From a virus (lineage: Duplodnaviria; Heunggongvirae; Uroviricota; Caudoviricetes), in IMG/VR virus record IMGVR_UViG_2585427789_000019: a DNA stretch of 23,165 nt; one strand, given 5' to 3'. Positions 9,783 through 12,248 of this stretch are shown in pieces. A program made the position numbers and the translations under genes. The notes beneath the pieces are model-generated. The model searched no databases and was not told the origin of the DNA. It was given only the letters and a program-made list of their open reading frames with translations. How positions within the stretch are numbered: position 1 is the stretch's first letter; every line of letters begins with the position of its first letter.

Positions 9783-9919
9783 TGTTTGAGTTTTATATGG
9801 CAGAACTTCTTCGCCACCGCTGGATGCGCCTGCGCTTATATCGTTTCCCCGGTTCTGTTTTGACCGATTACCGAATACTGAAGAATTACGCCAAAACACT
9901 GACAGGAGCAGGAGTATGA
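9779..9919 (+). CDS. ylcG: Small nin-region protein YlcG (46 aa)
   Basis: [46 protein letters not shown]; ATG overlaps the rusA stop. Confidence 0.55.
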
Positions 9920-10004
9920 AGTCAGAGATAACAATCAACTAATACTGTTTTGTTGATTTTTGCTTGTAATTGGCGTTCTGGTCTGAGTTTTGTGGAGTAA
10001 GTTG

Positions 10005-10388
10005 ATGCGTGATATTCAGATGGTTCTTGAGCGTTGGGGAGCGTGGGCGGCTAATAATCATGAAGATGTGACCTGGTCGTCCATTGCCGCCGGTTTTAAG
10101 GGATTAATTCCTTCAAAAGTAAAATCTCGCCCACAATGTTGTGACGATGACGCGATGATCATTTGCGGGTGCATGGCCCGTCTGAAAAAGAACAACAGCG
10201 ATTTGCATGATTTATTAGTAGATTATTATGTAGTCGGTATGACATTCATGTCACTGGCAGGTAAGCATTGCTGCTCTGATGGTTATATCGGGAAAAGGTT
10301 ACAGAAGGCTGAGGGCATAATTGAAGGGATGTTAATGGCATTAGATATCCGGTTAGAGATGGATATCGTTGTTAATAACTCTAATTAA
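10005..10388 (+). CDS. quuD: Q-like late-gene antiterminator
   Basis: 127 aa from the ATG at 10005 (ggag Shine-Dalgarno at 9994): [62 protein letters not shown]..., Cys-rich zinc-binding region typical of Q proteins, positioned after the nin region. Confidence 0.85.
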
Positions 10389-10421
10389 TATGCCAATTGT
10401 TTACTAAAAATTATTAAAAAT

Positions 10422-10450
10422 GGGGCGTTGAGACGCCCCCAAAAATAAAG
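10422..10450 (-). terminator. Intrinsic terminator for the minus strand (likely nmpC)
   Basis: Perfect 7-bp GC stem ggggcgt/acgcccc (10422..10439, loop tgag); on the minus strand it is followed by AUUUUUAAUAAUUUUU. Confidence 0.55.
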
Positions 10451-10527
10451 GGTAATATATAACAGAAGGTTTATATAGTTAGAAGCAAGGTTGTGCTTCT
10501 AAAGGAAGTGGCTTGAGGGAGCCACTT

Positions 10528-10567
10528 ATATGTTGGGGAGGCAAAGCCTCCCGCAACATATCTTTTT
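10528..10567 (+). terminator. Intrinsic terminator for the plus strand (candidate tR'-like terminator downstream of quuD)
   Basis: Long hairpin atatgttggggaggc-aaa-gcctcccgcaacatat (10528..10561) followed by cttttt. Confidence 0.55.
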
Positions 10568-10577
10568 CGTAATCAGA

Positions 10578-11660
10578 TTAGAACTGATACACCAGACCTA
10601 CAGCGACGATGTCGTCGGTATCAATACCAGCTGTTTTGGTAAACTTACTATCGTCAATTAAGTTGATTTTGTAATCAACAAAAGTGGACATGTTTTTATT
10701 AAAGTAGTAAGTAGCACCGACATCGACATACTTGACTAAGTCTCGGTCACCATGAACACCAAGGTCTTTACCTTTTGACTGAAGGTAAGCAACAGATGGT
10801 CGCAGACCGAAGTCAAACTGATATTGTGCTACTGCTTCAAAGTTTTGTGCTTTGTTTGCAATATGGTTATTACCAAAAACGGTCATATTCTGAGTTTCAG
10901 AATATGTGGTAGCCAGATAGATATTGTTCGCATCATATTTCAGGCCTGCAGCCCATACTTCCGCATTTTTGCCGGAGGCATTGAATTTGCTCTTACCATA
11001 GGCGACCTGACCGTCAGTGCGATCTGATTTAGCATAGGTTGCACCCACGCCGAATCCTTCATACTCATAAGTAGTGGAGAAACCGAAACCATCACCATTG
11101 GCTTCAGTTACGTCAGTGCGGTCATTTTTACCCTGATACTGAGCAGCAAAGTTCAGGCCATCGACCAGACCAAAGAAGTCGTTGTTACGATAGGTTGCAA
11201 CACCAGTGGTGCGACCAGTCATGAACACATCTGTTTGGGTCCAGGTATCGCCACCGAATTCTGGCAGAACGTCAGTCCACGCACCGATGTCGTATGCTAC
11301 ACCGTAGTTACGGCCGTAATCGATTGAGCCGTAGTCACCGAATTTCAGGCCTGCAAATGCAAGACGGGTTTTGTCTTTGGAGGAACCTTGAGATTCAGCG
11401 CGGTTGCCTTTGAATTCATATTCCCACTGACCGAAACCAGTCAGTTGATCGTTGATTTGGGTTTCACCTTTGAAGCCAAGACGGGCATAAGTAGTATCAC
11501 CATCATCTGCATCGTTAGAGGAAAAGTAGTGCTTGGCATTAACTTTCCCGTACAGATCCAGCTTGTTACTGTCTTTATTATAAATTTCAGCTGCCTGAGC
11601 AGACATCGCCATCAGTACTGATGCAGCTACAGCAGAAATTGCCACTGTTAATTTTTTCAT
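10578..11660 (-). CDS. nmpC: OmpC/OmpF-family outer-membrane porin (NmpC-type), apparently intact
   Basis: 360 aa with signal peptide ([23 protein letters not shown]), porin beta-strand pattern and C-terminal ...VGLVYQF; uninterrupted reading frame. Confidence 0.9.
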
Positions 11661-12248
11661 CGTGAGCCCTTTTTTTTGAACTATTATTAAAAAATGATGT
11701 CACTGCGCGATAAATATTCATCTAATCAATGTGATTATTTCAAGATGTAAGTTTTAGTTTCTCATTTAATTTGTGAAGTAGATCTCTATTTTTATCTGAA
11801 CTTTTTCTATCGAAACCTATTTATGGCTCTTATTTGAACAAAAATAAACCTATTAGCTAATTTATATTAATGGCTGTTATTTATGGGGGTTCTATAATTC
11901 AGTGGTTTAATTTAAATCAACCAAAAATAACGCCGGAAATTATTTATTGGTTATTTGTTGAGGTTTTCTTATATATTTGTGGTGGTGTTTTGAACACTCG
12001 GTAGCATTCTCATAAATATCATTCAGTGGTTTACGTACGTAAAAAATTGGTTATGCTGTTAAGAGTGGTTACTTCGTCACACAGCTTAAACCCGCCGTCG
12101 AGCTGGTTTTTCCATTTTTTGAGTCTCGATATTAGCTGATAACTCAATACCTGAGTTATTCACTGACTCCGAGTCTGTTACGTTTCTGCTTTTTTGCGAT
12201 ACGTTGTATTCCCTCAATTTACACCCGCTTTGTCTGCGAGGTGGGGTT

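Follow-up and report, generated by a model that had tools for sequence, protein, structure and literature searches.

IpeX, an RNA of the DLP12/qsr' prophage and of phage PA-2, was reportedly described by Castillo-Keller, Vuong and Misra in 2006, and its expression is said to lower OmpC and OmpF, and not OmpA, at the post-transcriptional level. Like MalH, a small RNA derived from a 3'UTR, IpeX is the tail of an mRNA and shares the terminator of that mRNA; unlike 3'UTR-derived small RNAs such as MalH, it is phage-borne and has host genes as its targets. CpxQ and SroC are further 3'UTR-derived small RNAs that resemble IpeX in this origin as an mRNA tail with a shared terminator. IpeX itself is characterized as a 167-nt DLP12 RNA that is part of the porin transcript, is processed from a larger precursor and controls OmpC (PMC12197685). 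According to the secondary literature, it represses translation of ompC and ompF, and its effect on ompC has been reported to be independent of Hfq.

Two other groups of small RNAs are relevant for comparison. MicC and MicF are encoded by free-standing genes of the core genome, whereas IpeX is the 3'UTR of a prophage mRNA. IpeX has no overall sequence homology to either of them; all three RNAs end in an intrinsic terminator, and the seed, which is located at the 5' end of MicC and MicF, would be internal in IpeX, between hairpins. The leader RNAs that extend from PR' to tR', lambda 6S RNA and StxS, are, like ipeX, small structured RNAs encoded beside Q, and StxS is also a regulatory sRNA (PMC7547250). 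These leader RNAs are plus-strand products of the late promoter, whereas ipeX lies on the opposite strand and belongs to the porin gene.

The window, that is, the whole stretch of 23,165 nucleotides analysed here, is the DLP12 (qsr') prophage of E. coli and is 100% identical to several E. coli chromosomes over this stretch. As the sequence-only reading of the window had it, quuD on the plus strand converges on nmpC on the minus strand (Table 1). QuuD is 79-82% identical to the Q proteins of Stx phages and is a distant relative of Q21, the structure of which has been solved. The porin gene is broken in other strains, by IS5 in K-12 and by IS1 in REL606; in the window, where it is uninterrupted, ipeX can come from the porin promoter.

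Table 1. Features of the quuD-nmpC region and of the late promoter region, in window coordinates
Feature	Position	Strand	Description
quuD	10005..10388	+	Q21/Q933W-family late antiterminator; Pfam PF06530, E 8.5e-54
H1 with U-rich tail	10406..10439	-	nmpC/ipeX intrinsic terminator; terminator scan match
ipeX as annotated in E. coli K-12	10414..10580	-	167 nt; nmpC/lc 3'UTR, stop codon to U-run after H1
H1	10422-10439		GGGGCGT/ACGCCCC; 7 bp, loop 4; 6 G-C pairs; from the sequence
Linker	10442..10476	-	between H2 and H1; conserved, essentially unpaired; proposed antisense seed
Weak all-A/U hairpin in linker	10456-10477	unassigned (.)	marginal, -2 kcal/mol
H2	10481-10500	-	agaagca/tgcttct; extends to 9 bp at 10479-10502
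H3	10506-10527	-	AAGTGGCT/AGCCACTT; 8 bp
H4	10528-10561	-	15 bp, one-base bulge, loop AAA; begins 17 nt past nmpC stop codon
nmpC	10578..11660	-	phage-borne OmpC/OmpD-like porin, intact; Pfam Porin_1, 1.9e-151
Homologue of Stx-phage Q 3' end, PR' and initial transcribed region	12029..12111	+	76-77% identity, E 1e-11 to 1e-12

The interval between the two genes had previously been read as a cluster of four stem-loops and had not been recognised as the published ipeX RNA, the annotated K-12 coordinates of which map there. In MG1655, ipeX occupies positions 574365..574531 on the reverse strand, a length of 167 nt (supplement, PMC8313858). An offset of 563,951, derived from the quuD coordinates, carries this annotation over to the window, where it falls between the nmpC stop codon (10578-10580) and the rho-independent terminator H1, on the porin strand. 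Over 189 nt, K-12 and the window differ by one substitution (10545), and in PA-2 the DNA downstream of the porin gene lc (record J02580) is 99.5% identical to the spacer. The window element and the IpeX of DLP12/PA-2 have the same locus, the same strand and the same 167-nt extent, with no structural difference. We are confident that the cluster is the already known ipeX, the structured 3'UTR of nmpC (lc in PA-2), which is encoded on the minus strand and extends from the nmpC stop codon to H1. Rfam covariance models yielded no match with E <= 1 on either strand of positions 9800-11200, ipeX is not annotated in the MG1655 RefSeq record, and the 3'-end map of Adams 2021 mentions none of quuD, nmpC and ipeX in its supplements. 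RefSeq labels the phage porin adjoining ipeX as 'ompC'.

All four stem-loops lie where the sequence-only reading had located them, and when RNA from both strands is folded, each of them is stable and surpasses all 200 shuffled versions. Folded alone, H1 reaches -13.3 kcal/mol on the plus strand and -13.9 on the minus strand, H2 -10.4 and -10.2, H3 -13.5 and -10.9, and H4 -22.7 and -23.3 kcal/mol, with 0/200 dinucleotide shuffles as stable in each case. The same is true of the quuD-nmpC spacer as a whole (~192 nt), with z = -6.1 (plus strand) and z = -8.3 (minus strand), and with 0/200 shuffles as stable. The U-runs also agree with the earlier description: ATTTTTAATAATTTTT comes after H1 on the minus strand only, and CTTTTTCG after H4 on the plus strand only, with five T residues at 10563-10567.

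The earlier reading had taken this arrangement for crossed terminators serving convergent transcription, of which the minus-strand half is borne out and the plus-strand half is plausible. By its sequence, H1 is a textbook intrinsic terminator of the minus-strand porin transcript, a G+C-rich stem-loop followed by AUUUUUAAUA, and the only match of the terminator scan in the spacer. The plus-strand site at H4 was not flagged in that scan, probably on account of the bulge. H4 followed by CTTTTT resembles a terminator on the plus strand, with a U-run that is short and variable (5 residues long, reduced to 4 in roughly half of the variants) and with no promoter upstream in the spacer; H4 itself is inside the minus-strand ipeX RNA. 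It is plausible that H4 with its T-run also acts as a terminator of plus-strand read-through from quuD, a candidate role in which it may keep such transcripts from continuing into antisense nmpC.

The element is associated with the porin gene rather than with Q. The same spacer and porin are present in all 80 IMG/VR loci whose QuuD is at least 99% identical, and the 36 phage records matched by the 189-nt spacer carry the porin and Q too, except for the partial PA-2 record, which ends before the Q gene; since Q and the porin always occur together in these loci and records, the two sets cannot separate them. In E. albertii, the porin gene is followed by an 87% identical copy of the UTR that ends just after the U-run of H1, and there is no Q gene, and in strain Trh52, the porin and the spacer are present without quuD. 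Because of these copies without Q, the unit is the porin gene with its 3'UTR and the H1 terminator, and the element travels with the porin, not with Q. No ipeX-like 3'UTR was found behind the chromosomal OmpD/OmpC-type porins of Salmonella, Citrobacter, Enterobacter and others, the proteins of which are 61-81% identical. At one E. albertii locus (L106, 1364-2700), the porin and ipeX module sits beside ycgN/ycgM-like chromosomal genes, an unrelated setting with no prophage Q nearby.

The copy number and this linkage also bear on the possibility that the hairpins mark a recombination hotspot or are a dispersed palindromic repeat similar to REP/BIME elements. A clustering of palindromes between convergent genes is characteristic of REP elements, yet the 192-nt element, which 2510 of the 5426 complete E. 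coli genomes contain (46%) and which occurs twice on plasmids, has a median of 1 and a maximum of 3 copies per genome. Nearly all of the matches listed coincide with an annotated porin gene, either whole or, as in K-12, interrupted, and the core of H4 occurs once in the 23-kb window. A REP-like repeat was rejected on copy number and porin linkage, and we assign it next to no probability. One listed match, a 64-nt fragment, comes from a locus with an IS5-like element in place of the porin gene.

ipeX evolves approximately 3 times more slowly than the synonymous sites of nmpC. The UTRs of E. coli and E. albertii share 87% identity, compared with 62% for the third codon positions of nmpC. Within the IMG/VR set, diversity is 0.03 in the spacer vs 0.16-0.23 at nmpC third positions, a difference that may be explained in part by the choice of loci for near-identical QuuD, which biases the left side. 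Among the intergenic sub-segments, H3 has the lowest diversity (pi 0.0023) and the linker at 10442-10476 the second lowest (pi 0.0098). Most of the changes in the spacer fall in loops, are compatible with G.U pairing or are compensatory. The variation of H1 is limited to the loop, whereas H4 shows one compensatory change from C-G to U-A in E. albertii and migration of the bulge in two E. coli strains (L169/L170). The commonest wobble-type change, T>C at 10498 in H2 (12 of 30 variants), favours the minus strand: the A-U pair 10483/10498 becomes G.U on that strand and an A.C mismatch on the plus strand. Across H1-H4, wobble-type changes keep the pairing on the minus strand only at 7 sites and on the plus strand only at 3. 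Covariation analysis found one compensatory pair with a score that 43 of 500 shuffles reach, which is not significant in an underpowered set of sequences that are ~96% identical; because of this mean identity, covariation support for the stems is weak and is not used as proof of structure.

The A/U hairpin in the linker is probably not a functional helix, and in 7 of 30 variants, U>C changes disrupt its pairing on the minus strand. On the plus strand, both independent changes there would give G.U pairs, and pairing on that strand is 100%. This compatibility with the plus strand could be due to chance or could hint at a plus-strand constraint.

The conservation of the hairpins and the linker has to be set against a simpler interpretation, under which the cluster consists merely of back-to-back terminators that insulate the convergent genes, without any separate function for H2, H3 and the linker. 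A U-run stands on the fitting strand at both candidate terminators, the minus strand for H1 and the plus strand for H4, and a terminator-insertion study came to the conclusion that transcription from the quuD side stops short of the nmpC-borne IS5, 'most likely due to intrinsic terminators'. Insulation leaves unexplained, however, why H2, H3 and the linker are conserved relative to synonymous sites, as well as the published effect of ipeX in trans on OmpC and OmpF, reported for OmpC also with ipeX RNA made from a plasmid, and the plus-strand U-run on which it relies at H4 is the short, variable one. We consider insulation as the sole role of the cluster quite improbable.

The sequence-only reading had also expected the late promoter, a qut site and a short late transcript in this interval, downstream of the Q gene. 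This expectation fails: the promoter scan found no sigma-70-like site on the plus strand of 10389-10577, and the same interval has no PR'/qut homology to phages of the same Q family (Q933W/H-19B type) or to ev087. A PR'-qut-tR' region in the spacer was rejected for lack of a plus-strand promoter and of PR' homology there, the homologue being 1.6 kb away, beyond nmpC (Table 1).

This homologue was located by comparison with a mapped promoter. In Stx phages, dRNA-seq and Term-seq place the PR' start 258 nt upstream of the 3' end of tR' (PMC7547250). The corresponding +1 maps to ~2957 in locus L084, with the -10 element TATCAT and the -35 element TTTACG inside the end of Q. Positions 2922-3003 of L084 are homologous to 12029-12111 of the window, and the PR' segment of this locus has no homology anywhere in 10389-10577. 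The window homologue comprises a -35 element TTTACG (12030-12035), a -10 element TATGCT (12052-12057), an inferred start at ~12064, the block TAAGAGTGGTTAC and then a hairpin. The block is invariant, follows the start and occurs nowhere else in the window, and 12029-12042 is a remnant of the 3' end of a Stx-type Q, including the stop codon. From these similarities, the QuuD-dependent late promoter likely lies at 12030-12064, beyond nmpC; in the DLP12 literature, the Q-controlled promoter is placed upstream of essD. The hairpin AAACCCGC..GCGGGTTT that follows TAAGAGTGGTTAC is partly decayed in the window (GCTGG) and intact in K-12 and in locus L041.

The alternative placement, with the QuuD-dependent promoter, qut and a short plus-strand late transcript in the spacer and with H4 as tR', draws on the fact that in most lambdoid phages PR' directly follows Q. 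In phage ev087, which has an 89% identical Q, a promoter-like site and a terminator come directly after Q and before a reversed moron, and in the spacer itself, a weak candidate can be picked out by eye (TTGAGA at 10428-10433, 19 bp, TAATAT at 10453-10458), upstream of H4 with its plus-strand T5. This candidate has a spacing of 19 bp in a segment where the promoter scan is empty, and nothing in the spacer resembles the PR' regions of ev087 or of the Stx phages. Moreover, the homologue of the mapped Stx PR' is found at 12029-12111, together with a post-start motif present there only, and in E. albertii the segment corresponding to ~10413-10580 accompanies the porin without any Q gene. A late promoter in the spacer is highly improbable in our assessment.

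The DNA homology between quuD and the Stx Q genes stops at 10337, and the last ~16 codons of quuD (from ~10338) are non-homologous. Because the homology ends there, the stretch 10338-12028 looks inserted: approximately this segment, with a new C-terminus of Q, ipeX and nmpC with its promoter, looks like a moron insertion between Q and PR', as judged by comparison with the Stx phages. For the annotation of lambdoid prophages, this matters in that DLP12 and its many relatives have, separating Q from the late promoter, a porin moron complete with 3'UTR and terminator, so that 'downstream of Q' is not where PR'/qut lies. Phage 434B (L086, OL657227), a laboratory isolate of 434 and a 434 x DLP12 hybrid with a qsr'-type substitution, carries the K-12 block of Q, ipeX, nmpC::IS5 and lysis genes; because it carries the whole block, the arrangement supports lytic growth and late transcription works across the block. 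The IMG/VR locus L041 has all of these parts as far as 12111, beyond which it continues in the manner of a Stx phage.

Several additional observations concern the surroundings of this module. Diversity jumps ~4-fold at ~10600, inside the 3' end of nmpC, which suggests a recombination boundary at ~10600. In L041 (5100-5430), the same Q, ipeX and porin are accompanied by a 64-aa ORF in place of the essD lysis cassette. In phage Lambda_ev087 (L083, 2879-3560), the Q gene is followed by a promoter-like site with a -10-like repeat, a StxS-like terminator (GCCAGCC..GGCTGG T8) and then a reversed lipocalin (blc) gene in the position of nmpC.

With the cluster assigned to ipeX, the linker between H2 and H1 becomes the segment of main interest. 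It includes the stretches CCUUCUGUUAUAU, CCUUUAUUU and CUGUUAUAU within the proposed seed and is complementary to the K-12 ompC mRNA from -31 to -1, with 27 bp, 1 G.U among them, and with the Shine-Dalgarno sequence covered. The pairing comprises a block of 9 bp between CCUUUAUUU and AAAUAAAGG, a block of 15 bp with one G.U between AACCUUCUGUUAUAU and AUAUAACAGAGGGUU, which lies over the Shine-Dalgarno sequence, and 3 peripheral pairs. In 9 of 9 linker variants, the ompC pairing is kept.

A full-length duplexfold comparison of IpeX with 210-nt targets is meaningless, yielding whole-molecule duplexes, and was replaced by an analysis of the linker only, by opening energies and by local alignment of DNA. 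The linker-ompC hybrid has an energy of -26.7 kcal/mol, compared with -13.9 +- 2.9 for 1000 shuffled linkers, none of which is as strong (0/1000), although duplexfold discriminates poorly for an A/U-rich seed and the best unrelated background window reaches -26.3 kcal/mol. After the cost of opening both RNAs, the net energy is -16.1 kcal/mol. The validated MicC-ompC duplex, evaluated by the same method, comes to -26.5, and the linker-ompC hybrid is equally strong. At the DNA level, local alignment of the plus strand at 10443-10475 with the ompC leader gives a score of 32 over a background of 13.5 +- 2.6 with a maximum of 22 (868 chunks). The score is 23 for ompF, with the match AGGGTAATAtATAA (13/14) over the ribosome-binding site, 19 for the leader of nmpC itself and 13 for ompA. 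The predicted order, ompC > ompF >> ompA, is consistent with the reported target pattern of IpeX.

The location of this complementarity also fits a seed. The linker is unpaired, bar the -2 kcal/mol hairpin, and is complementary to the initiation regions of ompC and ompF, as in a base-pairing sRNA. A region of IpeX reported to be accessible, [128,142], maps to 10439-10453, that is, the CCUUUAUUU arm in the 3' half of the linker. The 5' end of MicC targets the same segment of the ompC leader as the IpeX seed would, with a similar predicted duplex energy, and the ompF-binding stretch of MicF, UUAUUUAUUACC, is resembled by UUAUAUAUUACC of IpeX (11/12).

These features suggest the following mechanism. 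H4, H3 and H2 would form a stabilising 5' body and H1 would be the terminator, with the unpaired linker between H2 and H1 as the antisense seed, directed at positions -31 to -1 of the ompC mRNA, including the Shine-Dalgarno sequence, and less extensively at the ompF ribosome-binding site. Pairing of IpeX would block the initiation of translation in a MicC/MicF-like manner, and the lysogen would swap the host porins, which are phage receptors, for the phage porin. Contrary to the reviews, we favour, with moderate confidence, the view that IpeX regulates its targets directly, as an antisense RNA with which the phage functionally mimics both MicC and MicF.

Alternatively, IpeX could act indirectly and without base pairing, through titration of a protein or RNase or through its structure, the likeness of the linker to ompC being a functionless relic of an inverted porin leader. 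Secondary sources indeed deny that IpeX is complementary to ompC or pairs with it (PMC3617542, PMC10690425), and its mechanism has been described as not reliant solely on complementarity (PMC12197685); the experiments of the 2006 study may already speak against pairing. Furthermore, the energy-based background is not cleanly separated from the linker-ompC hybrid, and the plus strand at 10443-10475 reads as a porin leader, which is compatible with a relic of recombination. A relic is harder to reconcile with a DNA-level match far over the background maximum, which covers exactly the Shine-Dalgarno sequences of both reported targets and not that of ompA, with a duplex equal in strength to that of MicC, and with a linker that is among the most conserved intergenic segments and coincides in part with the reported accessible region. 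As for the published denials of complementarity, the longest exact match between the linker and ompC is 10 nt, so that a default BLAST search would miss it, which may explain the discrepancy with the literature. Altogether, an indirect action of IpeX appears to us possible but somewhat unlikely. The antisense match to the ompC ribosome-binding site has apparently not been reported so far.

The element itself is ordinary, ipeX having been described in 2006, and the base-pairing mechanism is a new, testable proposal. For twenty years, the mechanism of IpeX has counted as unexplained or indirect, and the complementarity offers a simple hypothesis. If direct pairing is the correct reading, the long duplex with ompC would explain the Hfq-independent effect on this gene, and the shorter duplex with ompF would explain an Hfq-dependent effect on ompF. 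IpeX would then be a clear case of a phage copying the host logic of MicC and MicF, putting its own porin in place of the host porins, which are phage receptors. A porin leader, copied in inverted orientation, may be the origin of the seed.

A plus-strand RNA covering 10443-10475 would be a mimic of the leader of ompC that contains the target site of MicC and has an insertion of 4 nt. If read-through transcripts from quuD exist, this RNA could in principle act as a sponge of MicC or pair with IpeX.
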